Source: Candidatus Altiarchaeota archaeon (GTDB lineage Archaea; Altiarchaeota; Altiarchaeia; IMC4; QMZM01). From it: 32,163 nucleotides of DNA. A program made the position numbers and the translations under genes. Every line of letters begins with the position of its first letter. Position 1 is the first letter of the stretch. The DNA is taken from assembly GCA_034659295.1 (NCBI GenBank), contig JAYEGX010000074.1:1-32163 (forward strand). Reading direction: 5' to 3'. The notes under the pieces are model-generated. The model saw only the letters and a list, made by a program, of their open reading frames with translations, was not told the origin of the DNA and did not search any database. Shown piece after piece: positions 8,508-32,161 of this stretch.

Positions 8508-9176
8508 ATGGCAGACATTATTGAGGGAATCCATCCCACCCGGATGGAACTGCTGGAGATAAACAAGAAGGTAATCCTTGCTGTTAAGGGACACAAGCTC
8601 CTCAAAGAGAAGAGAGATACCCTGATGACTGAATTCCTTGGCGTGATAGAGGAGGCTAAGGGTTTAAGAAGTGAGGTCATAGATTCCATGGAGGAGGCCT
8701 ACAGCAATCTGATAACTGCAGAGGCTGTGATGAGCTCATCTGACGTGCAGTCCATTGCTAACTCCATCCCTGAATCCAAAAAGGTGGATATTACCCTCAG
8801 AAACGTTATGGGCGTGAGGATACCCCAGATGAGCTTGGAATCCGATCAGGAAGCTGCAGCGAGCTGGGAATACCGTACACCATTGTCCACGGCTAAAATA
8901 GATGATTCGGTGGAATCATTTAATGCTGTCTTGGAGAAACTGGTTAAGCTGGTGGAGGTGGAGGAAACCATCCTAAGACTTGGGGAGGAAATCAAGAAAA
9001 CCAAAAGAAGGGTTAATTCACTGGAGCATAGAATGATTCCCCGACTCAAGGCCACCCAGTTCTACATAAACATGCGTCTTGAGGAGATGGAGCGGGAGAC
9101 TTTCTCCAGCCTTAAGGCAGTGAAGAGGAAAAAGGAGAGGGAAAAAAAACAGCATGAAGAAACTTCTCCCTTATAA
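8508..9176 (+). CDS. atpD: A-type ATP synthase subunit D
   Basis: HPTRMELL, GHKLLKEKRD, EIKKTKRRVNSLEH, LEEMERETF. Confidence 0.95.
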   Translation: MADIIEGIHPTRMELLEINKKVILAVKGHKLLKEKRDTLMTEFLGVIEEAKGLRSEVIDSMEEAYSNLITAEAVMSSSDVQSIANSIPESKKVDITLRNVMGVRIPQMSLESDQEAAASWEYRTPLSTAKIDDSVESFNAVLEKLVKLVEVEETILRLGEEIKKTKRRVNSLEHRMIPRLKATQFYINMRLEEMERETFSSLKAVKRKKEREKKQHEETSPL

Positions 9177-9399
9177 GGCAGTCTTATGCCCCTTTTGTGG
9201 GGGTATTCAGGTCACGAAGGGGGAGAAACAGTTCAGGTGCAGACTCTGTGGGAAAACCAGCTCCTTCAGGCACGACAGTAAATGGAATGTTAAACTCAAA
9301 GGATTCCATGCAGAGGAACAGGCCAGGGAATACTGCAAGGAATGGAAGAAGAGTAAGGCAGTGGGAACAGACGGCTTCAAATCCGGTAAAGAAATGTAG
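9154..9399 (+). CDS. Small zinc-ribbon protein (DUF1922/DUF5817-like)
   Basis: CPFCG..CRLCG pair followed by an amphipathic helix (EEQAREYCKEWK); overlaps the atpD stop. Family label is from recall only. Confidence 0.6.
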   Translation: MKKLLPYKAVLCPFCGGIQVTKGEKQFRCRLCGKTSSFRHDSKWNVKLKGFHAEEQAREYCKEWKKSKAVGTDGFKSGKEM

Positions 9400-11019: not shown

Positions 11020-13935
11020 CTAAGCCTCTTTTTCTTTGCTTTTCAGGCCTTCAAGCTCAACCTCGACATCTATAAGCTTTTTCTCATAATCCTGAACCAG
11101 AGACCTGTATGCTTGCTCATCTATCTCTCTCTTGTGGAACTTAAACCTAGCCCGCATAATTTTCTTGTTGAATTCCTCATTCTTAACTTCCAGAGTATTC
11201 AATCTCTCCCTTTCCTCCGATGATAGTGACGGCTTCAGGCGTTTCCTTTCGGTTTCAACAATCTTTTTCATCTCCTTTTTTTGGTTGGATAACATGGCAA
11301 AGGTCTCTACATCCTCTAACAGCTTTTTATATTCTTCCTTGCTATCACGTTCCTCCATCTGCTTCTTTGCCTGTGAATACCAGGGGGGTAGGGAGGATTC
11401 AACATCCTCAATTACATCAAGGAAGTCATTCATTTCAACACCCCTTCTTAAACCGCCCTCGACAGCCTCCTGCCAGGGGATTTCAGAGGCTCTATTACAT
11501 ATCTCTTGTATATCAGCCGAGGAGTATCCATCAGTTAACTCGGCGAGCATCTCAACATTAATTTTCTCATCGACTGGTATGTCTCGCATATGAACCATGA
11601 AAATCTCAGCCCTCGCCCGCTTATTCGGCCTTGAGACCAGGATTTTTTTAGAGAACCGTCCGGCTCTCTTGATTGAGGGGTCCAGGATCCATGGAAAGTT
11701 GGTGGCCGCTATAACCATCAACATCTTGTTTTTCTTTGAGTTATCTAATTCCTCAAGGAGTATGTCCACTATACGTCTTTCTTTACCGGTGAGCAACAGG
11801 TCTCTTCTCATGGCTAAAGCATCTAGTTCATCAAAGAACAATATCGCTGGAGTGTTCTTGTTAGCTCTCTCAAATATCTCCCTGACATTCTTCTCGGATT
11901 GACCATCCTTGTCAGATATTATATCTGTTATTTTCACATCAAAAAAAGAGGCCTTGCACTCGCCTGCTGCAGCCTGCACTACATAGGTTTTACCACATCC
12001 TGGGGGGCCGTATAGTAGGATTGAACCAGCTTCCTTCCTGAACTCCTTAGCCAGATCCTCCCTCATCAGGGGGTAAACAATATTCTTTTTTATCTCATCC
12101 TTCACGTTCTTTAGATTACCTACATCTGCGAAGGTCAGCTGGGGCTTAACTGCTTCATCAATCCCGCCCCCGTATTTGAGTATATGCTCAGAGAACTTCT
12201 TGAACCATTCTGTCTCACCGCTATCCCTTATCTCTTTCGCAGCAATCTTGAACCAGGGAATCAGGGAAGACTTTTGTTTTTCTATAGCGGCCATAAAATC
12301 CTTTATGGAGATCTCTCTTTTTCCCCCACCATCCAACGCCTCCTGCCAGGGCCTGTCAGCAGCCTGATCGCAGATGACTTTTATGTCAGATGACGAGTAG
12401 GATTCTGTTAACTCCGCCAGTTTCTCGAAATCTATGCCGGAAGATATTGGAAGCTTCTTGGTGTGTAGTTTAAATATCGCTAAACGGGTTTCAAGATCAG
12501 GGGGTGGGATAAATATTTGTTTGGTAAACCTGACAGACCTCCTCAGGGCCGGGTCAATGTTCCAGGGAACGTTTGTGGAGGCCATAACCAGCACATCCTC
12601 TCCCAGACTGTCAACTCCATCCATCTCCATCAGGAACTGGTCTATTTCCATCTTCTCCGCATAGGAGCGGCCCTTAACCCTTCGACCTCCTATCGCGTCT
12701 ATCTCATCAAAGAATATTATCGCAGGAGAGCTTCTCCTAGCCTCCTCAAATACCTCATGAAGGCTTCTGGCGCCCTCCTCCACCCCACGGGATATGATGT
12801 CGCTTATGTTGACGTTAAAAAATACGACACCGCATTCCCCTACCGTCGCCTTAGCTATGTAGGTTTTACCGCATCCTGGAGGGCCATAGAGCAGGATTGC
12901 CCCACCGCCTTTTTTCCCGAACTCCTTGGCCAGCTCCGGCTTGGTCAGGGGATATACTATCGCCTGCCTGATCTCGTTTTTTATGCCCTCTAAATTAGCG
13001 ACATCAGAGAAATTTATGGTCGAAGCCTCCACCGGAACAGCATTCTTAGAACCTATGGCTGTTCCAATAGCTACCGGCTTAAGTGGTTCCCCCCCCATGA
13101 TTGTTGATTTAGGCATGGCGTTCCTGCAAACAGGGAAGTGCATTTTCGGTTCGATCTTCATGTGCTGCTCGCTCTTTTCTCTAACACCCTGCAGATAAGG
13201 CAGTAATGTGATGCCCTCCAGCTCAACCTTTCCGCTGAATAACAGACCAAGAACCTCGCTTATTTTGTCTATGGAGTACTTGATTTTGTCTTTATCATAT
13301 CCTGCGACCGTGATTTTTGTTTCCTTCAGGTGAGCGGATAGATCCCAGCCATCGTCCCTGAAATGTGGGAAATCGTAGTTGAATTTCACCCTCCTTTTCA
13401 CAAGAATCTCCTCATCACCTGAGCTGAATTCCTGCCATAGGGTAGCTAGCATAACCTTTAGGGAGGGTTTGAATGATTTAACCAGGGCAAGCCGCTCTAG
13501 ATCCAAAACAGATTCCATATTAAGCTCATCATGGAATATCCACTCATGTGCCATCAGCTGACCCAGCGTGTTTATTGATTTATTTGGAAGGTCTATTATC
13601 TTCCTCAGTAGGTCGTAGGTGTCCACTCTGACAGATTGGAGCGGGATTTTGGAGGGGAAATGATACATGTCTGCTGTGCTCAGATCAACGTAGAAGTAGT
13701 TGTCCCTGATTTTGTAGATTGTCTCGGTGGCTATCAGGCCTTTTTTCTCTTCCTCCTGGTGGGATATCTTAAGCCTTGCCAGGGGCCTGTAGGCTTTTTT
13801 CAGCTCCACAGCCTCGTGGGTTATCGCTCTCTTAAGAGAGCCTACAGGAGAGTCCTCTAACGCCCCCAGCTCAGCTATCTTCTCGGCTGCTTTTGATATG
13901 GCGAAAGAGCTGGTTTCAACCCTCTTAATTTTCAT
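11020..13935 (-). CDS. Tandem AAA+ ATPase (two classical AAA modules) with unrecognised N-terminal domain and C-terminal coiled coil
   Basis: Two GPPGCGKT Walker A motifs, IIFFDEID and ILFFDELD Walker B motifs, SRH STNVPW..DPALRRSVRF and ATNFPW..DPSIKRAGRF. The ~300-aa N-terminus does not look like the CDC48 N-domain. Confidence 0.9.
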   Translation of the reverse strand: MKIKRVETSSFAISKAAEKIAELGALEDSPVGSLKRAITHEAVELKKAYRPLARLKISHQEEEKKGLIATETIYKIRDNYFYVDLSTADMYHFPSKIPLQSVRVDTYDLLRKIIDLPNKSINTLGQLMAHEWIFHDELNMESVLDLERLALVKSFKPSLKVMLATLWQEFSSGDEEILVKRRVKFNYDFPHFRDDGWDLSAHLKETKITVAGYDKDKIKYSIDKISEVLGLLFSGKVELEGITLLPYLQGVREKSEQHMKIEPKMHFPVCRNAMPKSTIMGGEPLKPVAIGTAIGSKNAVPVEASTINFSDVANLEGIKNEIRQAIVYPLTKPELAKEFGKKGGGAILLYGPPGCGKTYIAKATVGECGVVFFNVNISDIISRGVEEGARSLHEVFEEARRSSPAIIFFDEIDAIGGRRVKGRSYAEKMEIDQFLMEMDGVDSLGEDVLVMASTNVPWNIDPALRRSVRFTKQIFIPPPDLETRLAIFKLHTKKLPISSGIDFEKLAELTESYSSSDIKVICDQAADRPWQEALDGGGKREISIKDFMAAIEKQKSSLIPWFKIAAKEIRDSGETEWFKKFSEHILKYGGGIDEAVKPQLTFADVGNLKNVKDEIKKNIVYPLMREDLAKEFRKEAGSILLYGPPGCGKTYVVQAAAGECKASFFDVKITDIISDKDGQSEKNVREIFERANKNTPAILFFDELDALAMRRDLLLTGKERRIVDILLEELDNSKKNKMLMVIAATNFPWILDPSIKRAGRFSKKILVSRPNKRARAEIFMVHMRDIPVDEKINVEMLAELTDGYSSADIQEICNRASEIPWQEAVEGGLRRGVEMNDFLDVIEDVESSLPPWYSQAKKQMEERDSKEEYKKLLEDVETFAMLSNQKKEMKKIVETERKRLKPSLSSEERERLNTLEVKNEEFNKKIMRARFKFHKREIDEQAYRSLVQDYEKKLIDVEVELEGLKSKEKEA

Positions 13936-14038: not shown

Positions 14039-14224
14039 ATGGATGAAAAAAATGCGGGTGCGGGTTCTGGAACCAAAACGCTTAAAAAGCCGTCTAGAGA
14101 ATCTAAAGTGAAGGAAGGTAGTGATGAAGCGCTTATGGCGGCCATAGTCTACGCTTTATACGGTACCTACGCATGCTACAAGGGTGAAGATTTCAGGTAC
14201 GTTGCCATAGCGGATATGTTATAA
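14039..14224 (+). CDS. Small hypothetical protein
   Basis: 61 aa; stop overlaps the next ATG (TAATG), consistent with translational coupling; short hydrophobic helix EALMAAIVYALY. Confidence 0.4.
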   Translation: MDEKNAGAGSGTKTLKKPSRESKVKEGSDEALMAAIVYALYGTYACYKGEDFRYVAIADML

Positions 14225-14918: not shown

Positions 14919-15152
14919 ATGGACCTGGTTTACGAACTGGCGGCTATCGCAGCCCTTGCGTTATTTGCCGTCCTTTTTCTTTTATTCTTTATTGGCATAC
15001 TCTCCTCAGTCTTTGGTGTAGCTTGGGGGTTTATGGATTTCCTCCTTGAGCCCATGGCTTCACTGTATTACAGAATATTCGGCAAGAAGGAGGATAATTC
15101 AAGCAGCGATTATTCTATCGACCAGGGGGAGGAGGTTGAAAAGAAAAACTAA
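14919..15152 (+). CDS. Small membrane protein
   Basis: Long hydrophobic N-terminal segment followed by a charged tail; starts 2 bp after the AIM24 stop. Confidence 0.65.
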   Translation: MDLVYELAAIAALALFAVLFLLFFIGILSSVFGVAWGFMDFLLEPMASLYYRIFGKKEDNSSSDYSIDQGEEVEKKN

Positions 15153-15943
15153 AGCTTAACCAGCTCAACTGTTTGTATATCACCCCCCCTGTCCGCTATG
15201 GAGGTTACGATAATGTTCAGCGCCTGGTTCACGGCCAGCTCATCAAGCCCTGTGACATCAATAAACACGTCTGTTGTGGAATTTCTTATCCTAGTGAGCT
15301 CCCCGTTTATTATCGGAGGGAAGGACAGTATATCGTTGTTTTTATCCACTATTATGGGATACCTGCTTAACCCGTTAAGGATCCATGCGTACTCTTGACC
15401 CGTGGGGTGTTTCGTTAGTATTTCTTTTGGAGTCAGTTCCTCGGCCATGCCAAGGGGCTTGAATTTTATGCCATCAGGTTTCACTGCCTTGTAGGTGTAG
15501 GGTCCCTCTATTTCTCTCATGTCGTGCACCCCAATCGCTACCTTCTTCCTGTGTCTGCCGTGTGTTACGTGTAATTTCTCCTGCAGGTTCATAAGGGAGA
15601 TCAGACGCTTCTCGTTGAGTGTCAGGTTACGGATTACTGCCGCAGAGATGACGGGCCGTACCTTATCCACAGAGTTATCTATGTTCAGGGTAACACCTGA
15701 CTCTGTGAGTTCATATTCCGTTAAGCCGGTCTCGTCACCCAAAAAACCGTTGAGCGCTCTTGCGAAACCCTCCACAGATAAAAGATCAGGTCTGTTGGGA
15801 AACACCTCAACCACGATTTTGTCCTGGTCTATGCTCTCCAGATCAACCCCCAGCATGGGAATCTTGTCCCATAAATCCTTCGCGCTGTATTGTTTGACGA
15901 GAAGGGAGCGCAGGTCATCGTAGTCTAATTCTATGGTAGGCAT
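15149..15943 (-). CDS. pheT: Stand-alone N-terminal portion of archaeal PheRS beta subunit (B1 plus B3/4 editing domain)
   Basis: MPTI..EVFPNRPDLLSVEGFARAL, NLQEKLH, RKKVAIGVHD, SFPPIING, FIDVTG. It stops at 264 aa, about half the length of a typical archaeal PheT. Confidence 0.85.
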   Translation of the reverse strand: MPTIELDYDDLRSLLVKQYSAKDLWDKIPMLGVDLESIDQDKIVVEVFPNRPDLLSVEGFARALNGFLGDETGLTEYELTESGVTLNIDNSVDKVRPVISAAVIRNLTLNEKRLISLMNLQEKLHVTHGRHRKKVAIGVHDMREIEGPYTYKAVKPDGIKFKPLGMAEELTPKEILTKHPTGQEYAWILNGLSRYPIIVDKNNDILSFPPIINGELTRIRNSTTDVFIDVTGLDELAVNQALNIIVTSIADRGGDIQTVELVKL

Positions 15944-24104: not shown

Positions 24105-24493
24105 TTAAATTTTCTGGGCTCGAGACTTCAGGATCTCTTCAAGAACCTCTCCTGGATTTATTTTTTTGTGGGGTTGTACGTTCTCTTCTTCTTGGATGTG
24201 GGTGTGGTGTGGGTATGTATCCAGTTCTGGGGTGGTGGTTTGCGTTATCCCATTCTCTGGATCAGGTTACCTGATGAATTCTGCCAGTGGTATCTGTATT
24301 TTTCCACAACCACGGTGTTCTTTCTAAGCAGTATATACTCAAATAGGTGTAGTTCGGAGCCATCATCTAGTTTTATGATAGCGTTTATGTGGCCTTTATC
24401 CTCGCTTCCAAGAAAGGTTTTAGCCTCGGTTGATGTTGTAAGCAGGGATTCTGAGATGAGCGATACAGTCTGTTGGAGGTATTTTTCAATCAC
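24105..24493 (-). pseudogene. DUF6516/TumE-like toxin broken by two +1 frameshifts
   Basis: The ORF ends ..YRYHWQNSSGNLIQR-MG*. Removing one A (~24253) gives WDNANHH; removing one C (~24231) gives PELDTYPHHTHIQEEENVQPHKKINPGEVLEEILKSRAQKI* ending at 24105. This restores the family's WDNA.HH...PHH.H motif. Confidence 0.8.
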
Positions 24494-24791
24494 TTACAGC
24501 ACCTTGGAGTATCTTATACCTCTGCTCCCGGTCTTTGTGGTATTGTATGTAAGCGAACCATTCGAAGTAGTCTTGTTTGTCACCTAATTTTCCTTTCTCG
24601 AACTCGGAGTAAAATTTTTTAGAGGATTTATCATACTTGGATTCGAATTCCTTCAGTTTTTTCTTGTATCCCTTGGTCATCATCTTGCTCACCCGTAATT
24701 CTCGTTTAATGGCGTCTTTCACTGTTTTAGCCACCATGTTCGGGGGATATTTGGTTTTGAATTTGAGGTTCACAAACTCCATTGCTTCCAC
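24486..24791 (-). CDS. Putative antitoxin (TumA-like) upstream of the DUF6516 gene
   Basis: LKEFESKYDKSSKKFYSEFEKGKLGDKQDYFEW pattern; 8-bp overlap with the toxin GTG start. Confidence 0.7.
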   Translation of the reverse strand: MEAMEFVNLKFKTKYPPNMVAKTVKDAIKRELRVSKMMTKGYKKKLKEFESKYDKSSKKFYSEFEKGKLGDKQDYFEWFAYIQYHKDREQRYKILQGAVSD

Positions 24792-24858: not shown

Positions 24859-25860
24859 TCACATCAGCTTCTTCTCGACGTAGTCCACCAGCTCTTCCTC
24901 GAATCCCTGTGACCTGACCACCGTCTTGAGTTTCTCAGGGTCCTCACCATCCCTAAGCTGTTTCTCTATCCACGTAATCAGCTTCATTCTCTTCCTTTGT
25001 TTCTCTTCAGCCTGTTTATTATCTTCACGTTTTTTGTAGACGAAAAACGCAGTCGCCAGTACAACAGCTGTCGTAAGCAGGTAAAGAAGCAGGTTTCCGT
25101 CAGAGACCGCACCTCCTCCAACCGTGGTCGCTGGGGAAGTTGATGTTGAAGCGACTGTGTCTGGTGTTGTTGTGGATGGGATGAGAGTTGATGTAGTAAT
25201 TGTAGTTGTTTCAGCAATGCAGTCCGGGTCGTCGGTGACTGGGCAGTTGGGGTCGCAGACACCGTCTTCTTTTTTGTCGCAGTAGGCATCAGATGAACCG
25301 CTTTCGCAGTCCATGGGGCATGTTTTATGGTTCTCTTTTGGGTCACATATGCTATTTCCGCATGAAGTCTTTATTTCACCGCCCACACAATCCGGGTCGT
25401 TTTGGTTCAGGCAATAGGGTTCGCATAAACCGTCAGACACACATATTTTTTCAGGTATGTTTATTTCCTGAATTATTTGGTTGTTGTGGTAGAATCTTAT
25501 CCACTCCATGCTCGGATATGATGGTGTTGTCAGCATCCACCTGCTTTCGTTGAGCACTATTTTTTCTACGCCAACGTATGTTATGAACCCAACGGTGAGG
25601 TTTCCGGCATACAATACTTTTTCTTTGGAACATATCTCCACCCGGTATCTGCCTTCTTGGCTGGAGTATAGGTTGGTTTTTCCGTAGCCGGTGGATAATC
25701 CACCTACCTGAACTGAGCCGTTGCGGTAGAATGTTGTGTCAAAGGATAGGGTTCGGTAGTCTGCCGAAGCAGGTAGAGAAAGTATCGCTAGAGCTAGTAG
25801 AAAGACTCTGGCTGAGGTTTTCATGTTTTTACCTGATTTATTGTTTTTTTCTTCCAGCAT
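24859..25860 (-). CDS. Membrane-anchored Cys-rich surface protein
   Basis: Signal peptide (probable start 25824, MKTSARVFLLALAILSLPASA), beta-rich domain, CGNSICDPKENHKTCPMDC and DGVCDPNC..DPDC modules, Thr/Ser linker, one TM followed by YKKR and a cytoplasmic tail. Confidence 0.85.
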   Translation of the reverse strand: MLEEKNNKSGKNMKTSARVFLLALAILSLPASADYRTLSFDTTFYRNGSVQVGGLSTGYGKTNLYSSQEGRYRVEICSKEKVLYAGNLTVGFITYVGVEKIVLNESRWMLTTPSYPSMEWIRFYHNNQIIQEINIPEKICVSDGLCEPYCLNQNDPDCVGGEIKTSCGNSICDPKENHKTCPMDCESGSSDAYCDKKEDGVCDPNCPVTDDPDCIAETTTITTSTLIPSTTTPDTVASTSTSPATTVGGGAVSDGNLLLYLLTTAVVLATAFFVYKKREDNKQAEEKQRKRMKLITWIEKQLRDGEDPEKLKTVVRSQGFEEELVDYVEKKLM

Positions 25861-25869
25861 TTTTCTTCC

Positions 25870-28110
25870 TTAACTGTAGTAGTTACATTCGTCTTGTCTA
25901 TATGATGTATACGGGTCATCGGGGCACCCGTCCAAGTGGGGTTTTAGCGCAAAATCCTTAAGATGACCGTAGGCTGCGGGCCCGAAACAGGAAATGGGAG
26001 TGTAGTATGACATGATGAAGTCTTTTCTAATATCTTCATCTTCTGGTGGAATAACTCCTCCCTCACTTTTGCTGCAGTCAGGGCAGTTAGGATAACTGGG
26101 GCAGGCATCACAGTTTACTCCTCCTCCGTTAACGTGCGCGAAACCTAGAGTGTGTCCTAATTCATGCGTCGGGACCAATAGATCAGAAATTTCCCAGTCT
26201 CTTTTAACAGCCGCTCCTATAGAAGGGATGCCTCCACATTTACCTGTCGAATCATGATCGTTATGTGAGCTTATGGCAAGGAATTTATCATAGATTACTC
26301 CTTTATCACTTAAACATTCGTATGCTTTTTCAATGCAATCATTCAGATCCTTTGCACATTTTTCTGGTCCGCAGTCGCTTGGTTGAAGAATCACCGGAGC
26401 TACTTTTGCTGTACAGATACGGAAAGGAGTCTTGTCTCTGAATTGAGTTATAACATCATTTGCTTTAGAGTTGAATACGCCTGCTTCACTTTCCTCCCAG
26501 CCCACTGGGACTACTGCCAGCTTAAAGTCTCCTCCTGGTTCAGGAGTGCATCGTTTCACACACCCATATGAAACGCTAGCATCATGGTATCCTCCCGCAT
26601 AATCGCATGTGTTTTCATCACTATCTGATGTAGTAGTGGATTGCTCTATCACGTAGATATCTGTACCTACAATAGAACATACAGTATTTTCATACAATCT
26701 TATATCATGAGAAGAAGATTCTAGTTTAATTCCATCACAATGGTTTTTCTTTACAATGTTGTGTGTAACTGCATCTCCCGAAGAACCATGGATAACAATC
26801 CCCTCCCCTTCGTTTTCGTTCACGGTGTTGTCTGTCAATTCGTTAGCATTTGAGGAAGAAGAGATATAAATCCCACTTTTATTGTTTTCATTCACTGTGT
26901 TGTCTGTCAATTTATTACCATTTGAGGAAAAGAAGATCCAAACCCCATATACTTCGTTTTCGTTCACTGTGTTTTTTGTCAACACATTATTGTTTGAGGA
27001 AGAGATAACAATCCCACATTGCTTGTTTTTGTTCACTGTGTTACCTGTCAAAACATTGTTCTCTGAGGTAGAGATAATAATCCCATCCCCCTCGTTTTCG
27101 TTCACGGTGTTGTCTTTTAATACGTTATTGTTTGAGGTGTCACTGAGAAAAACACCTTTCCAAAATTCCTTAATAGTGCAGTCTTGGATGGTATTACCTG
27201 TTCCACCGATCATATATATCCCAGAGTCGCTACCTCTTCCGTCTATGAAATGTCCTCCGCAATCAAAGGTCACACCATCATTCTCCCAGGTAATGCAGAT
27301 CCCCGGGTAGTCTGATATATCGTCCATCAACAATATAGTATCCCCCTCCTTAGCGTTCTTGATCGCTTCGGTGCAGCTCTCGCAGCTGTCGCATGTGAGC
27401 CCGGCAGGACTGCCGTATTCTGCAAGGACGACATTATCTCCCCACTTAAACTTCACACAGTGCGGTCCCGTATCTTCCGGAGGTAGTTTATCGAGGCTGG
27501 TGCATTTCACCGTTTTAGACTTGCCTCCCTCAACAGTTAAACTGAGTTCACCCTCATTGAACTCGACGCAGGAGGTGGTTATCTCCGTGAAATCAGACCC
27601 CGGTGGCTCCGGCTCACATCCCGTGTCTTTGGCTATATAGAACTCCACCAGATGGGTTTCTGCCGTTCCCCCCTTATTTGTTATACTACCTATAAGCCTC
27701 CGGATGCATGAGCCGCCCACAGGACCTCCGCAGCACCCGCAGTCGAAGCCCCGCTCCATGCACCTATATTCATCAAGACTATCAATACCTAGCGGGTCCC
27801 TACAGCAGTAGGTTCCGGTGTCGGCAGTGCAGGTTTTGGCACCGCATGAGCCTTCCACACCAACATCCTCGCATCCGCCACTGCATTTAAAACAGTATCC
27901 CCCAGATATGCTATGACCTCCACAGGTCCCATAATCAAAACCCTTAGCAACACACATATCCCCGTGGCCTGCAGCCTTGCAGGTATACGGCAGACCATCA
28001 CAGGACTCAGCAGGACATCCATCCTCACAAAGCCAACCCCAGGCCTGAGCAGATACCGGATTACTGCCGATAAATAATACCGCAACCATCAACCAAAATG
28101 TTTTTTTCAT
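25870..28110 (-). CDS. Secreted multidomain zinc metalloprotease (Cys-rich / Ig-like / parallel beta-helix / metzincin)
   Basis: Signal peptide ending VSA|QA; about seven ~23-aa N.L..NTV..N...GI beta-helix repeats; HELGHTLGFAH (HExxHxxGxxH) and Met-turn FIMSY. Confidence 0.87.
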   Translation of the reverse strand: MKKTFWLMVAVLFIGSNPVSAQAWGWLCEDGCPAESCDGLPYTCKAAGHGDMCVAKGFDYGTCGGHSISGGYCFKCSGGCEDVGVEGSCGAKTCTADTGTYCCRDPLGIDSLDEYRCMERGFDCGCCGGPVGGSCIRRLIGSITNKGGTAETHLVEFYIAKDTGCEPEPPGSDFTEITTSCVEFNEGELSLTVEGGKSKTVKCTSLDKLPPEDTGPHCVKFKWGDNVVLAEYGSPAGLTCDSCESCTEAIKNAKEGDTILLMDDISDYPGICITWENDGVTFDCGGHFIDGRGSDSGIYMIGGTGNTIQDCTIKEFWKGVFLSDTSNNNVLKDNTVNENEGDGIIISTSENNVLTGNTVNKNKQCGIVISSSNNNVLTKNTVNENEVYGVWIFFSSNGNKLTDNTVNENNKSGIYISSSSNANELTDNTVNENEGEGIVIHGSSGDAVTHNIVKKNHCDGIKLESSSHDIRLYENTVCSIVGTDIYVIEQSTTTSDSDENTCDYAGGYHDASVSYGCVKRCTPEPGGDFKLAVVPVGWEESEAGVFNSKANDVITQFRDKTPFRICTAKVAPVILQPSDCGPEKCAKDLNDCIEKAYECLSDKGVIYDKFLAISSHNDHDSTGKCGGIPSIGAAVKRDWEISDLLVPTHELGHTLGFAHVNGGGVNCDACPSYPNCPDCSKSEGGVIPPEDEDIRKDFIMSYYTPISCFGPAAYGHLKDFALKPHLDGCPDDPYTSYRQDECNYYS

Positions 28111-28151: not shown

Positions 28152-29987
28152 TCATGGCTCCAACCACTCCACCCTGAGATTCATCAGAATGTCACCGCCT
28201 CCAGTGCATTCTCCTTTGCAGCAGTAGCCTGACTCGCAGGTTCCGGAGACTGTGCTGCAGTCCTCGTATGAGCTGCAGGGTTTTTCCATGCATTTACCGC
28301 CCACATCCACGCAGTCAGGTCTGTCACCGATGAGACCCGGCTCCCAGAGCAGGTCAACCAACATAACAGCTACGCCTATGATAATCAACCCCGCGATCAC
28401 GTAAATCAAACACCTCTTGGATTTCTCCTTTGTCTCCACATCATCTGCTAGGATGAACCTGATGCCGCATACGGCGAAAATCAGTGCAGCTAATATGATG
28501 GACGCCAGCGTTATAGCCTTGTATAAGTCCACCACGCCGATGTTGAATCTGCACTTGCTCTTGCAGACCTGCTTGCACCTTGCTACCGCGTCCTCGCTTC
28601 CCTTGAAGTCATTATCCGCTGGGTCACAGAAGGTATCACAGCAATCAACGCAGTCTTCATCTGCTAGCCCGCAGGGTGCCAGCCCCCCGCAGACGCCGCC
28701 ACACTTCGCGAGACAGTTCCCCTCACCTAGGCTAATTTCCTCAATCTCAACAGGACCTTCCTTCGTGTTGCAGGTGCAGGTGCAGGATACGACTTTGTCA
28801 CCATCACCGTCACCATCACCATCTCCGTCACCATCACCGTCTCCGTCACCATCACCATCACCGTCTCCGTCACCATCACCGTCACCATCCCCGTCACCGT
28901 CACCATCCCCGTCACCATCACCGTCTCCGTCACCACCCCCAGAGCAAGCTCCCATACAACAAGAAAAACCTGAATCGCAGACTCCGTCTGCAATTGGCTT
29001 GCAATCAGTATATTCGCTGCAGTCTTGTTCCATGCACTTACCGCCAACTTTATCACAGGCATCCGAATCACCTAAATGCTTATTTAGAAAACCAAGAAGA
29101 GCAACCATATCTTTATTATTAGGCACACCCTTATAATCTGTTTCAAAAAACCAGCCGAAATTATGATCATAGCCTGTTGTCTCCCTATATTCAAAATACA
29201 CGCCCGCACCCTCAAGCTTATCACGTAATTCCCTGCTCTGCTGTATGGGAACCACATAATCCCCCTTATCATGTATTATAAAAAAGGGGGGATCACCACC
29301 ATCAACATAAGTCACAGCACTATACTTCAATGCCTTCTGATTGCAAGGAGGGTTAGACTCATCGGGCTTACAACCCAAAAGCATATCCAAAAGATTATCA
29401 TGTTCAGGAGGCATACCCTGACCATAGCAACCCCAATAAATACAATCCCAGCAACCCAACCGATAATCCCTACAATACAGAGACAGGGAAAATAGATTCG
29501 ACAAACCAGACATATCAACAACCGCATCAACCGAACCACTGCCCTCAGTCGTCCCATAAAAAGAAGACAGATGAGCTCCCGCCGAACCCCCGATAACAGC
29601 AAACTCCTTAGTATAACCATATTTCTCATATTGCTCTGGACGCTTAAGCCATCTCACAGCGCTGCTAACATCCTCAGTCGGCGCAGGAAACTCCTCCTTA
29701 AGCCGGTAATTAATCGAAGCATAAGCAAAAGAAAAACCATAAGGATTAAGCTCCGGATCATTAAGAAAACCACTATAGTAAGCCCAATGATCTGACTTAT
29801 CCCCACTGATAAAACCACCTCCATGAATGAAAATAACAAGCGGCTTAGGATCCCCCTCAGGAATAGAAAGATCAAGCTTCTGATATCTATCACTCCCATA
29901 CGGCAAATCCTTATGCACAACGGCAGCATCCACAGAATTAACAACCAGCAACAAAACCAAAACAAACACAAACCTCCAATCAACCAT
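28152..29987 (-). CDS. Secreted alpha/beta-hydrolase (HSL-like esterase) fused to Cys-rich modules, a (GD)23 spacer and a TrbC/VirB2-like pilin hairpin
   Basis: Probable start 29987 (MVDWRFVFVLVLLLVVNSVDA); HGGGF, GGSAG, HDKGD and GYDH triad motifs; two TMs separated by ADDVETKEKSKR. Confidence 0.85.
   Translation of the reverse strand: MVDWRFVFVLVLLLVVNSVDAAVVHKDLPYGSDRYQKLDLSIPEGDPKPLVIFIHGGGFISGDKSDHWAYYSGFLNDPELNPYGFSFAYASINYRLKEEFPAPTEDVSSAVRWLKRPEQYEKYGYTKEFAVIGGSAGAHLSSFYGTTEGSGSVDAVVDMSGLSNLFSLSLYCRDYRLGCWDCIYWGCYGQGMPPEHDNLLDMLLGCKPDESNPPCNQKALKYSAVTYVDGGDPPFFIIHDKGDYVVPIQQSRELRDKLEGAGVYFEYRETTGYDHNFGWFFETDYKGVPNNKDMVALLGFLNKHLGDSDACDKVGGKCMEQDCSEYTDCKPIADGVCDSGFSCCMGACSGGGDGDGDGDGDGDGDGDGDGDGDGDGDGDGDGDGDGDGDGDGDGDGDKVVSCTCTCNTKEGPVEIEEISLGEGNCLAKCGGVCGGLAPCGLADEDCVDCCDTFCDPADNDFKGSEDAVARCKQVCKSKCRFNIGVVDLYKAITLASIILAALIFAVCGIRFILADDVETKEKSKRCLIYVIAGLIIIGVAVMLVDLLWEPGLIGDRPDCVDVGGKCMEKPCSSYEDCSTVSGTCESGYCCKGECTGGGDILMNLRVEWLEP
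28797..28934 (-). repeat. Coding low-complexity repeat (Gly-Asp)23
   Basis: 138 nt = 46 codons, with mixed GGT/GGA/GGG and GAT/GAC codons. Confidence 0.95.
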
Positions 29988-30094
29988 CTTTTCTTTTCTC
30001 TCCCACATACACGACACCCCACCGTAACATTATTAATATCTTAGGTTATATATCTGTCCCTGTGATTCCATCACCTTTCTGCGTGCATGTTTCT

Positions 30095-32161
30095 TCAGGG
30101 GCAGGCTACCTCCCTCTGGCCGCTCCACCTGTCCACGTAATCGCATATTGTGTTCCCGGAGGCGTCGTTGAGTTTCACGTGGATAATGGGTCCAGTGCAC
30201 AAAAGCTCATAGAGGGAGTAGGTGCCTATGCCCACCTCCTTGCTCCACTCCATCTCGCATACGAGATAGTCGGCGGTCGATATAATCAACTCTATCACCC
30301 AATAGCATACCATGGCTCCGGCTGCAATAACAATCAAGGCAGGAAGATTCATGGTACAAATCGCCGCCAGTGTTGCAAGCAGGAAGGGCAGTATAAACGC
30401 CAACGTCACCACCAAACCCCCAATGTGCATGTAAAATCCTATCTTCGTAAGGTAGATGTCTCTATTCTCGTATCCTGATGCTATGAGTCTATTCCCTGCC
30501 TCCATAAAGAGTATGCCCAATACAAGCCCGGCTATTGAACCGTATCTGGCGTATTTACTCCGCCCGATATCCCTCAGTTGTTTAATCTCCTCACCCCTCA
30601 CCTTACGCCCATACCCCGAGTAATCGCTGTCATGCTGCCTGTCCAGCTTATCCGCGATCTCCATGTTCTTCTCTATTGCCTCAACCCACCTCCCCTCTGA
30701 CTCCACTATCTCCTTAGTTACCTCCAGCTTACCTGTATCAACAAGGTCCTTGTATTTAGTAGCTGCCTCCCCTCCCTCAGACATGACCTCAATGTAGTCG
30801 TCATAGGATACTCTGTTAAGCTTTTCAAGAAGTTCGGTGAAATGAGTTATCCTGTTTCTCGCAACCTCCTCAGCTGACATGCCCATATAGTCTATAATCT
30901 CCGGAGCCATTCTCAGCTCCCGGATATAATCTCTTGTAGCCTCTATTATCGACCTGACATTTGCTTTATCTTCTGGGGTGATTAGGATACTGTCACCGTC
31001 TAACTCACGCAACATATCCTTCATTTTATCATCCAGTTCCACAATCAGATGCACATCCACTTTCTTGAGATAATACTGTTTCTCAAGCTCTCCGATAATC
31101 TCTTTGTTGATTCTTTCATAGTATTCCACGCGACGGTTTATGACCTTTACCTTATGCTGTACCCCGAGCAGTGAAACAAATTCCGTGATTTTAGCTCTGA
31201 TCAGAGGTAGATAGTGGTCGTAGGTTCCTTTCATGTTATCCGGGTGATTTATGTATTCCGTGATTATGTCCGACGTCATTTTATGATCGTTCATTAGATT
31301 GGCTGCTTGAGCCAGCCTCTTACATGCCTTACCGTATTCTCCCCGTCCCGCATAAAATTCAGCTCCAAGCGACCCGTCGATGATCTCCCCCAGCCCGGTC
31401 CCCATAACCTCCGGCGTGATCTTCAGTTCCCCGAACTGGTCTTGTATATCAGCTAACAGAGCAGAGGGTCCGATAAAAATGTTTTTGGTCATGAGTATGC
31501 GATTCCGCGCACCCAACCTCTCAACAATCTCCCTGAATGTGCCGTCAAACATCAGTTTATCAGGATAAATATCTCTCCCAGCAAACAATGTATCCCTAAG
31601 CTCAAATAATCTGATTGTCACCATATTCAGGATACTCTCCCGCATATTCCGCGGTAAATCCTCTGAAAAGATAACGAAATAATCAAGGTCACTGATGACG
31701 CGATTGAAGTTTATTGACGCCTTCTCCCCCTCCAGCGTGTACCCGTAGGATGTACTCCCGCCGTATACTATAGAAAACTCTCCCTTGAAGCTTGGATCCT
31801 CCGCCTTGAGTTCCGCTAGTATGTCGTTCACAATCCCCTCCGTTGCCTCAATTAGGTTACCTCTTAATTCCCCGTCGATTACCACATCAAGGCTTTCTTT
31901 TGTGAGAGGCTCCGAGGTCCTGTAGCAGCCGCCGCCAGTGCACATCGATGTAACACCCGGCACCGCAATCCGCCGCTGGAATTCACAGAATTTATTCACG
32001 GTCTCCAGGAGGAGACGATTAGCTTCCTCCGCAGGAAGCGCAAGCATTTCCTTAAGTAGGGGGCCGTTTTTTATGAGGTCGGTCTCAAGGGAATCCGCGA
32101 TAAACTTTTTTTCGTCATCAGTGAACTCCCCCAGGTTATTCCTAATTGCCTCAAGCGCGCC
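30095..32161 (-). CDS. Large protein (5'-truncated by the window) with a Pol-beta-like nucleotidyltransferase motif, a helical region and three C-terminal hydrophobic helices
   Basis: The frame stays open from 32047 to the window edge (GALEAIRNNLGEF...GPLLKE|MLALP). IVYGGS...SDLDYFVIF motif; hydrophobic SIAGLVLGILF, IGGLVVTLAFILPFLLATLAAI and LPALIVIAAGAMVCYWVIELII; four-Cys tail. Confidence 0.8.
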   Translation of the reverse strand, partial: GALEAIRNNLGEFTDDEKKFIADSLETDLIKNGPLLKEMLALPAEEANRLLLETVNKFCEFQRRIAVPGVTSMCTGGGCYRTSEPLTKESLDVVIDGELRGNLIEATEGIVNDILAELKAEDPSFKGEFSIVYGGSTSYGYTLEGEKASINFNRVISDLDYFVIFSEDLPRNMRESILNMVTIRLFELRDTLFAGRDIYPDKLMFDGTFREIVERLGARNRILMTKNIFIGPSALLADIQDQFGELKITPEVMGTGLGEIIDGSLGAEFYAGRGEYGKACKRLAQAANLMNDHKMTSDIITEYINHPDNMKGTYDHYLPLIRAKITEFVSLLGVQHKVKVINRRVEYYERINKEIIGELEKQYYLKKVDVHLIVELDDKMKDMLRELDGDSILITPEDKANVRSIIEATRDYIRELRMAPEIIDYMGMSAEEVARNRITHFTELLEKLNRVSYDDYIEVMSEGGEAATKYKDLVDTGKLEVTKEIVESEGRWVEAIEKNMEIADKLDRQHDSDYSGYGRKVRGEEIKQLRDIGRSKYARYGSIAGLVLGILFMEAGNRLIASGYENRDIYLTKIGFYMHIGGLVVTLAFILPFLLATLAAICTMNLPALIVIAAGAMVCYWVIELIISTADYLVCEMEWSKEVGIGTYSLYELLCTGPIIHVKLNDASGNTICDYVDRWSGQREVACP

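Follow-up and report, generated by a model that had tools for sequence, protein, structure and literature searches.

AAA unfoldases are thought to rely on a staircase of aromatic pore-loop residues, and an aromatic-hydrophobic-Gly pore loop 1 is typical of, though not strictly defining for, the classical AAA clade. Pore-aromatic mutants of related motors lose unfolding, and in structures of Cdc48 with bound substrate the D1 pore loops are in contact with it. Eukaryotic Cdc48/p97 has a competent D1 ring in which the pore aromatic is missing (K-L/M-A-G). Esaki 2017 (PMC5511170) reports that yeast Cdc48 lost the D1 aromatic and that restoring it is lethal via forced degradation with the 20S proteasome, and argues that the loss limits threading and degradation. 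The ATAD2/Abo1/Yta7 proteins are also classical tandem AAA proteins, and passages of a study on Abo1 (PMC6917787) describe a negatively charged pore which engages a basic client tail, not unfolding it for degradation, with a bound peptide suggestive of the basic H3 tail. Here we describe P0001, an AAA protein encoded in a DNA stretch of 32,163 nucleotides (contig JAYEGX010000074.1 of assembly GCA_034659295.1, Candidatus Altiarchaeota archaeon; hereafter the window). It lacks the typical pore loop and represents a lineage-restricted family, new within the classical AAA clade, from one order of Altiarchaeota.

P0001 resembles CDC48, VAT and p97 in being built of tandem classical AAA modules with lids. 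Pfam recognises two PF00004 modules (250 bits over two stretches), each with AAA_lid_3; the Walker A sequence GPPGCGKT is as in p97 D2, and human p97 is the best PDB sequence match (E 6e-101, HMMER). It differs from these proteins in having no pore aromatic in either ring, a D1 module that is not orthologous to CDC48 D1, an added helical tail, and a C-terminus (...SKEKEA) without the hydrophobic-Tyr-X (HbYX) proteasome-docking motif, and its family includes proteins with one, two or three modules. A CDC48 double-psi barrel in the N-terminal domain (N-domain) had been named by an earlier first-pass annotation, made from the sequence of the window, as a possible objection to its reading of the protein; residues 1-300 gave no CDC48_N or CDC48_2 match (PF02359/PF02933, double-psi barrel plus beta-clam) at the sequence level (Pfam, E<=0.01). 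A true CDC48 coexists in the same genome (contig C78), as a 747-amino-acid (aa) open reading frame (ORF) scoring 1087 bits against TIGR01243, with aromatic pore loops. It ends in ...YYR, and related PANs end in ...LYV or ...MYA.

The NCBIfam scores of P0001 all lie well under the cut-offs, namely 402.2 against 802.65 bits for CDC48 (TIGR01243), 378 against 500 for PAN (TIGR01242), 357 against 600 for FtsH, 347 against 650 for CdvC (NF041006) and 219 against 510 for the anti-phage ATPase IetA/IteA (NF042959). PAN and Vps4-CdvC are single-ring archaeal classical AAA proteins, whereas P0001 has two modules and neither a coiled-coil-OB nor an MIT N-domain (no MIT match in residues 1-300, Pfam), nor the HbYX end. 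PADLOC gave generic AAA matches only (IetA, TRIP13), those to IetA spanning the AAA modules alone, and no IetS-type protease gene adjoins P0001 as judged by Pfam scans of its window neighbours. The likeness to Abo1 is meant as one of possible working mode only. Unlike P0001, Abo1 keeps an aromatic residue, Trp345, in pore loop 1 (PMC6917787). It also has a degenerate second ring and bromodomains. Among the matches listed in the literature searched on Altiarchaeota AAA proteins, Cdc48 and proteasome ATPases, no description of the P0001 family was found by title or abstract.

Origin of the two AAA modules

A word-indexed search of 5.8 billion proteins returned full-length relatives of P0001 at 38-91% identity. 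Their named source organisms are always Altiarchaeota or Altiarchaeales, save for one record from an 'uncultured archaeon', and their source names are generic only (e.g. 'AAA family ATPase'). All share one architecture, in which one, two or three AAA modules are attached to the same N-domain (about 300-350 aa), giving total lengths of about 650-680 aa, about 930-990 aa and 1178-1270 aa, respectively.

The two modules of P0001 are more similar to each other (45% identity over 259 residues, 249 bits) than either is to any CDC48 module (33-40% identity, 143-180 bits), and residues 300-544 match positions 443-687 of TIGR01243, which is the CDC48 D2 part of that model. The first-pass annotation had proposed that the protein stems from an internal duplication rather than from CDC48 descent, and had suggested a phylogeny of the separate modules as a check. 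Our tree of 89 AAA modules (IQ-TREE quick search, LG+C20 with posterior mean site frequencies, PMSF) contained 18 of about 60 two-module, 6 of about 17 three-module and 8 of about 25 one-module family members, together with nine CDC48 proteins including the genome's own, two Asgard three-module proteins and, as outgroup, four of five fetched PANs. All 62 family modules formed one clade (Shimodaira-Hasegawa-like approximate likelihood-ratio test, SH-aLRT, 100; stem 0.94), placed among the CDC48-D2-type modules and separate from the CDC48-D1 clade (SH-aLRT 99), with PAN outside it. The single-module forms all fell with the family D1 modules, and the third modules appeared as duplicates of D2 which have arisen at least twice. 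An approximately unbiased (AU) test on a 40-row subset (LG+G4) rejected a grouping of family D1 with CDC48 D1 (delta lnL 120.9, p-AU 1.7e-6); the constrained group was named after the first tree was seen, and it corresponds to the CDC48 descent that the first-pass annotation had set against duplication.

Tree, AU test and pairwise identities agree with the earlier proposal and show that one CDC48-D2-like module, duplicated in tandem, gave rise to the two catalytically intact modules. The matching segments to which that proposal had pointed were located at residues 529-562 (PWQEA...SSLIPWF) and 820-853 (PWQEA...SSLPPWY). Within each repeat unit they cover the lid and the stretch that follows it, and they fit a duplication, of which they are no proof alone. 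We have very little doubt about the anatomy and evolutionary history of P0001 as described here.

The search also gave a number of other multi-module AAA proteins (P0092, P0101-P0103, P0109, P0114 and P0116). Among them are an Asgard-type three-module group with normal aromatic pore loops, and proteins of 1619-1636 aa that carry three to five Walker A motifs and whose loops are mostly non-aromatic (SPLPG, SPYSG).

Pore loops and terminal domains

The pore-loop-1 strings quoted in the first-pass annotation, DIISRGVEEG and DIISDKDGQS, lie at residues 379-388 and 671-680. In the HMMER alignment to human p97, S-R-G-V-E of P0001 D1 stands opposite S-K-L-A-G of p97 D1, and S-D-K-D-G of P0001 D2 opposite T-M-W-F-G of p97 D2, so that the aromatic slots are taken by Gly in D1 and Lys in D2; an alignment that put an aromatic residue there had been named in advance as the observation that would speak against non-aromatic pores. 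To see how general this is, we surveyed 109 family proteins in which the N-domain is accompanied by a Walker A motif (203 AAA modules). With the loop taken at a fixed offset from Walker A, gaps not being modelled, no aromatic residue occurred at the canonical position in any of the 108 D1 or 95 D2/D3 modules, so that what had been claimed for one protein holds family-wide. The position after the slot is aromatic in 11 of 108 D1 modules (all Phe) and in 4 of 95 D2/D3 modules. D1 loops typically read [KR]-G-[VIF]-[ED] and D2 loops x-E-E-G, with Glu in the first slot in 58/95 and in the second slot in 47/95 of the D2/D3 modules. For comparison, the loops are KYYG and KWVG in the CDC48 of the same genome and KYIG or KYLG in related PANs. 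The family differs in this respect also from eukaryotic Cdc48/p97, which lost the aromatic in one ring only, whereas here it is missing from all rings of every member examined (R-G-V-E in P0001 D1).

The motor residues, in turn, are fully conserved. Walker B (D410 E411 and D702 E703, in FFDEID and FFDELD), sensor-1 (N455 and N746) and the arginines (R465, R466 and R469; R757 and R760) are invariant in 49/49 aligned two-module members, as is Walker A, in line with the earlier observation that both modules keep Walker A/B and arginine fingers, and P0001 also retains G-E/Q-S-E after the pore loop. Because these residues are invariant in both modules, both rings look catalytically competent.

With regard to the N-domain, residues 1-300 match no Pfam family at E<=0.01, and a profile of the family N-domains found no sequence relative in the PDB (best E 0.052). 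The domain is thus unrecognised by sequence, as had been stated before. An AlphaFold2 model built from 69 aligned sequences reached a mean predicted local distance difference test (pLDDT) score of 89.1 and a predicted template modelling (pTM) score of 0.85. Foldseek of this model against the PDB returned nothing at E<=0.001 and the ESM Atlas no usable match, while VIA-align wide, which scarcely probed the remainder of the domain, returned winged-helix proteins only, at residues 108-189. Structure comparison, which had also been suggested at the outset, therefore adds one recognisable part to an otherwise unrecognised domain: as modelled, the N-domain contains a winged helix. In 32 sequences this subdomain carries an acidic to neutral net charge (median -2, range from -9 to +4), which weakly suggests protein binding rather than DNA binding.

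A profile from 32 N-domains, searched against 1.84 billion representative proteins, matched only 124 representatives at E<=0.001. Of these, 21 are joined to AAA modules and 34 consist of the N-domain alone or of fragments; 66 are extended at the N-terminus by at least 100 aa, either there alone (56) or with an additional C-terminal extension of at least 120 aa (10), and three have the C-terminal extension only. All 20 N-extended full-length proteins scanned match the restriction-endonuclease-fold domain Mrr_cat above cut-off, as do the truncated P0192 and four ORFs from the loci. Among the 13 C-extended representatives, 12 match the PAP2 membrane phosphatase domain, the remaining one (P0198) having a sub-cut-off match to ArsP_1 instead. 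A 280-aa gene for the N-domain only overlaps the start of the AAA gene in one genome. Since the alpha-beta-beta-beta...alpha-beta order of the N-domain and its fusion partners suggested kinship with Mrr_cat, a PD-(D/E)xK relation was tried; hhalign against 52 Mrr_cat segments gave a probability of 0.2%, and the relation was rejected at the sequence level.

Several loci carry further N-domain genes. Tandem genes for Mrr_cat plus N-domain proteins (about 380-406 aa and 458-466 aa) occur at L046 2004-4521, L047 3349-5962 and L051 4190-6786 (genomes G039, G050 and G038, respectively), where the pairs are conserved beside a gene of about 570-600 aa that reads by eye as an acetolactate synthase. At L048 (G048) the same acetolactate-synthase-like neighbour lies upstream of a 391-aa N-domain frame, which is followed by a single-AAA member. 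N-domain proteins of about 580-607 aa with a C-terminal PAP2 domain occur elsewhere (P0159, P0173 and others). Genes for DUF2085 membrane proteins lie near N-domain genes of both the AAA and the Mrr type in 5/15 loci (L049, L050, L060, L046 and L047), and DUF5518-like small membrane proteins are encoded beside N-domain genes in three loci.

The full-length model of P0001 (pLDDT 79.3, pTM 0.52) places linker helices at residues 558-572 and 579-588 and ends in two long helices joined by K-R-E-I-D. The first-pass annotation had described a coiled coil with a SHOCT-like end, KREIDEQAY (residues 935-943). A helical tail with a conserved hairpin is indeed present, whereas the SHOCT label finds no backing in Pfam: PF09851 gave no match at E<=10 to the last 76 or 160 residues, although the turn motif G/R-E-I-D/S-E...aromatic resembles what we take to be the SHOCT pattern. 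A CdvA-like coiled coil (PF18822) was likewise considered and rejected, scoring 17.2, 16.9 and 14.5 bits against a cut-off of 30 bits; at E<=1 this model is non-specific and also matches in 10/14 control genomes. The tail consensus K[YF]xxGEI[DS]ExxF....DYEKxLIExE is found in most members of the one-, two- and three-module forms. Among family tails that reach 60 aa or more, 65/90 match it as a strict pattern, and most of the remaining 25 can be read by eye as variant spellings of it; three have a DUF835-type tail instead.

Moreover, five further copies of the hairpin module are encoded in the genome (E 7e-10 to 7e-6). One forms part of the cytoplasmic tail of a membrane-anchored protein of 248 aa, which has a CarboxypepD_reg-like domain on the outside (contig C11, L004 1060-1800); another is flanked by beta-sandwich domains of CARDB/NPCBM type in a protein of 674 aa or more (contig C38, L005 29-2026); and the other three are in small ORFs. 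Outside the genome, residues 880-971 compared with shorter proteins gave none at E<=0.01 among the 102 candidates scored. A co-fold, made without alignments, of residues 880-971 and the C11 membrane protein's cytoplasmic tail scored 0.39, against 0.01 for the best of three controls; the runs agreed on at least 92% of contacts and the partner pLDDT was at least 73. The mark set for such co-folds is reached by 51/78 solved complexes and 2/108 mismatched pairs; among those reaching it, only 5 of the 78 complexes, but all 4 passing mismatches (of 180), scored 0.60 or under. The predicted pairing thus lends weak support to docking through the hairpin.

Distribution and candidate mode of action

The N-domain is present in 47/49 genomes of the order, the two misses being 77% and 74% complete, and in 13/13 order genomes that are at least 90% complete. 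In the other two families of its class it occurs in 0/12 genomes. The neighbourhood of P0001 is of a housekeeping nature (SecDF, A-type ATP synthase, a UMP-kinase-like protein, PfkB, TrkH and Nre) and in part conserved elsewhere. One neighbour, at 15149-15943 (-), is a 264-aa fragment of the phenylalanyl-tRNA synthetase (PheRS) beta subunit with the B1 and B3_4 domains only, i.e. the N-terminal half of a split pheT, a trait which a passage of Bird et al. 2016 (PMC4975002) describes as a hallmark of Altiarchaeales. In 33 of the 46 genomes with both genes, the AAA gene is found downstream of this half-gene, on the same strand and no more than 5 kb away; the gap is at most 100 bp in 6 of the 33, and in 11 of the other 13 genomes the genes are on different contigs. 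Given the occurrence of the N-domain in 47/49 genomes and in all near-complete ones, and the kept place by the split pheT, P0001 behaves as a core gene rather than as an accessory one.

Short pheT frames (about 264-320 aa) are found in families f1-f8 and full-length ones (538-632 aa) in f9, with G009 (a 553-aa frame) as an exception. The idea that split pheT and the AAA family form a shared lineage trait was rejected, since the split form occurs also in f7 and f8, which are without the AAA family. For the same reason we take the adjacency to reflect a preserved order of core genes, which may be co-transcribed, rather than to prove a shared function.

As for the proteasome, 20S subunits are encoded in 46/49 genomes of the order. 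Only 5/61 genomes of the phylum gave PAN-like ORFs (about 400 aa; 436-485 bits, in each case short of the cut-off of 500). They belong to families f7 and f8, which are without the N-domain, and no such ORF was found in the 48 genomes of f1-f6, G000 included. Family f9 (8 genomes) is without both a PAN-like gene and the P0001 family. Families f1-f6 thus have 20S proteasome genes and CDC48 where no PAN-like gene was found, whereas f7 and f8 have PAN-like genes.

With Asp/Glu lining the D2 channel and no pore-loop-1 aromatic in any module, the motor probably works without the usual aromatic-paddle grip. The first-pass annotation had proposed a remodeller or scaffold that would not thread polypeptide in the usual manner, which is a reasonable, though putative, reading of the pore loops. 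Starting from these alignments, we tentatively favour a mode of action in which P0001 engages its client with low grip and with the help of charge, in place of pulling by aromatic paddles; we would put this somewhat short of probable, and our estimate varies little around that level. Like its relatives, P0001 would probably, as its family membership suggests, assemble as a two-tier hexameric ring and hydrolyse ATP in both tiers. The ring of N-domains would most likely recruit a client or adaptor, D1 would contact a client segment via Arg/Lys plus Val/Ile/Phe, and the D2 channel, lined by Asp/Glu, would favour basic client segments. The expected outcome would be local remodelling or release of a specific partner and not processive unfolding for degradation. 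The C-terminal hairpin would probably pair with the same hairpin in other proteins, including the membrane-anchored one, and so place the ring. Severing enzymes use basic pores on acidic tubulin tails; if the acidic-channel reading is true, the channel of P0001 would be their charge mirror image. A wider proposition, that the lineage as a whole possesses motors without aromatic paddles in all rings, which take substrate via an acidic channel, are built modularly of one to three rings on the same N-domain and bear a hairpin 'address tag' shared with membrane/envelope-type proteins, is speculative and in our view distinctly unlikely as a whole.

Several points weigh against low-grip, charge-assisted engagement. 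The pore geometry is read from the alignment to p97. D1 keeps an aliphatic residue or Phe beside the lost aromatic (Val 21, Ile 11 and Phe 11 of 108), as p97 D1 keeps Leu-Ala, which leaves room for weak threading. The D2 slots differ between the close relatives P0001-P0007 (DKD, GME, SKE, SEE, GTE, EKE), and this variation could reflect relaxed constraint or drift instead of a selected acidic channel. A histone tail, considered as the basic client, was rejected: the one histone gene found in the genome is a 73-aa frame and tail-less. Finally, both chains in the co-fold are coiled coils, which are prone to pair in models.

The same D1 residues would serve a conventional threading unfoldase, in which the second-position aliphatic or Phe together with backbone contacts grips the client, D2 powers the movement and loss of the aromatic tunes the force. 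All motor residues are intact, Val, Ile or Phe stands at the second position in 43/108 D1 modules, and the D1 ring of p97 (K-L-A-G) is likewise without an aromatic. However, p97/CDC48 keep Trp-Phe or Trp-Val in the other ring while none of the 203 family modules is aromatic at the slot, and D2 has Glu/Asp where every comparator has hydrophobic residues, so we regard P0001 as somewhat unlikely to thread in the conventional manner. A remodeller directed at nucleic acid or chromatin, with the winged helix as its DNA-binding part, is an improbable reading of P0001. The subdomain is present, paralogues are fused to a nuclease fold, and Abo1 offers a precedent for an acidic pore on a basic chromatin protein, to judge from the passages on it (PMC6917787); yet the winged helix is acidic to neutral, an acidic pore would repel nucleic acid, and the genome's histone offers no tail. 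The classical AAA clade, to our knowledge, acts on proteins.

A role in defence or conflict, with the N-domain as a sensor common to nuclease-type effectors, is suggested by the fusions of the N-domain to Mrr_cat and by the PADLOC matches of the AAA modules to IetA and TRIP13. These matches and the NCBIfam ones amount to generic AAA similarity, as the IteA score illustrates, and the window contains no nuclease or protease partner as judged by Pfam. Moreover, a near-universal gene, usually in one to few copies and in housekeeping synteny, is unlike patchy defence islands, which makes this role highly improbable. We give even less credence to the view that, in this order, P0001 caps the 20S proteasome as its ATPase in place of PAN. 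The complementary occurrence of PAN-like ORFs and N-domain, and the presence of 20S subunits in nearly all order genomes, would fit such a replacement. However, P0001 terminates in a long charged helical hairpin in place of an HbYX-type end, the genome's own CDC48, with its Tyr-Tyr-Arg end, can serve as cap, f9 does without both PAN and the P0001 family, and a cap that lacks pore aromatics would not be an effective unfoldase.

With every ATPase residue kept in both rings and no canonical pore aromatic in any of 203 modules, the family, near-universal in one archaeal order, offers a natural experiment on AAA rings without aromatic paddles. The shifts in ring number (one, two or three modules) by repeated tandem duplication bear on how CDC48, NSF and other type II AAA proteins originated. 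In addition, two uncharacterised modules are defined, namely the winged-helix-containing N-domain and the hairpin at the C-terminus, and the picture of proteostasis in Altiarchaeales is extended in that, in the genomes examined, 20S and CDC48 are present and PAN was not found.

Feature positions and neighbouring genes

Table 1. Positions of the P0001 gene and its parts in the window (res, residues).
Feature	Position	Strand	Remarks
P0001, whole coding sequence	11020..13935	-	971 aa plus stop; MKI.RV N-terminus aligns with homologues
Putative archaeal promoter, TATA-like TTTATAAAA	13961..13969	-	26-34 nt upstream of ATG, in divergent intergenic region; sequence reading only
N-domain, res 1-300	13036..13935	-	alpha/beta, very long strands 41-65, 71-84 and 236-254; family-specific
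Winged-helix subdomain (model), insert in N-domain, res 108-189	13369..13614	-	
D1 AAA module (alpha/beta plus lid), res 301-555	12271..13035	-	PF00004 at 347-477
D1 Walker A GPPGCGKT, res 351-358	12862..12885	-	
D1 pore loop 1 S-R-G-V-E-E, res 382-387	12775..12792	-	Gly in aromatic slot, Val next
D1 post-lid extension and inter-module linker, res 556-595, SSLIPWF...SGE...GGGID	12151..12270	-	conserved in family consensus
D2 AAA module, res 596-845	11401..12150	-	
D2 Walker A GPPGCGKT, res 643-650	11986..12009	-	
D2 pore loop 1 S-D-K-D-G-Q, res 674-679	11899..11916	-	Lys, Asp opposite p97 D2 Trp, Phe
D2 post-lid extension, res 846-869, SSLPPWY...	11329..11400	-	repeat of D1 extension
C-terminal helical tail	11023..11328	-	three long helices, 870-900, 906-934 and 940-970 (model)
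Terminal helical hairpin: helix, KREID turn, helix (...KFHKREIDEQAYRSLVQDYEKKLIDVEVEL...)	11023..11220	-	turn at 935-939 in model

The positions are compiled in Table 1. P0001 is flanked by a convergent PfkB kinase gene on one side and a divergent small ORF on the other, and is therefore probably transcribed alone. A 61-aa ORF at 14039-14224 (+) has ends that match the start and the end of DUF4870 membrane proteins of 116-148 aa encoded at the same position in related genomes, and looks like an internally deleted DUF4870 remnant. At 9154-9399 (+), an 81-aa zinc-ribbon ORF, with weak Zn-ribbon Pfam matches only, overlaps the end of the A-ATPase subunit D gene. Three ORFs of 333, 650 and 139 aa at 24859-25860 (-), 30095-32047 (-) and 24168-24587 (+), respectively, have no Pfam match at E<=0.01, and they adjoin a 746-aa NosD/beta-helix protein at 25870-28110. 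Finally, a 621-aa protein encoded at 28152-30017 (-) combines BD-FAE/esterase matches with a C-terminal match to T4SS_pilin (PF18895).

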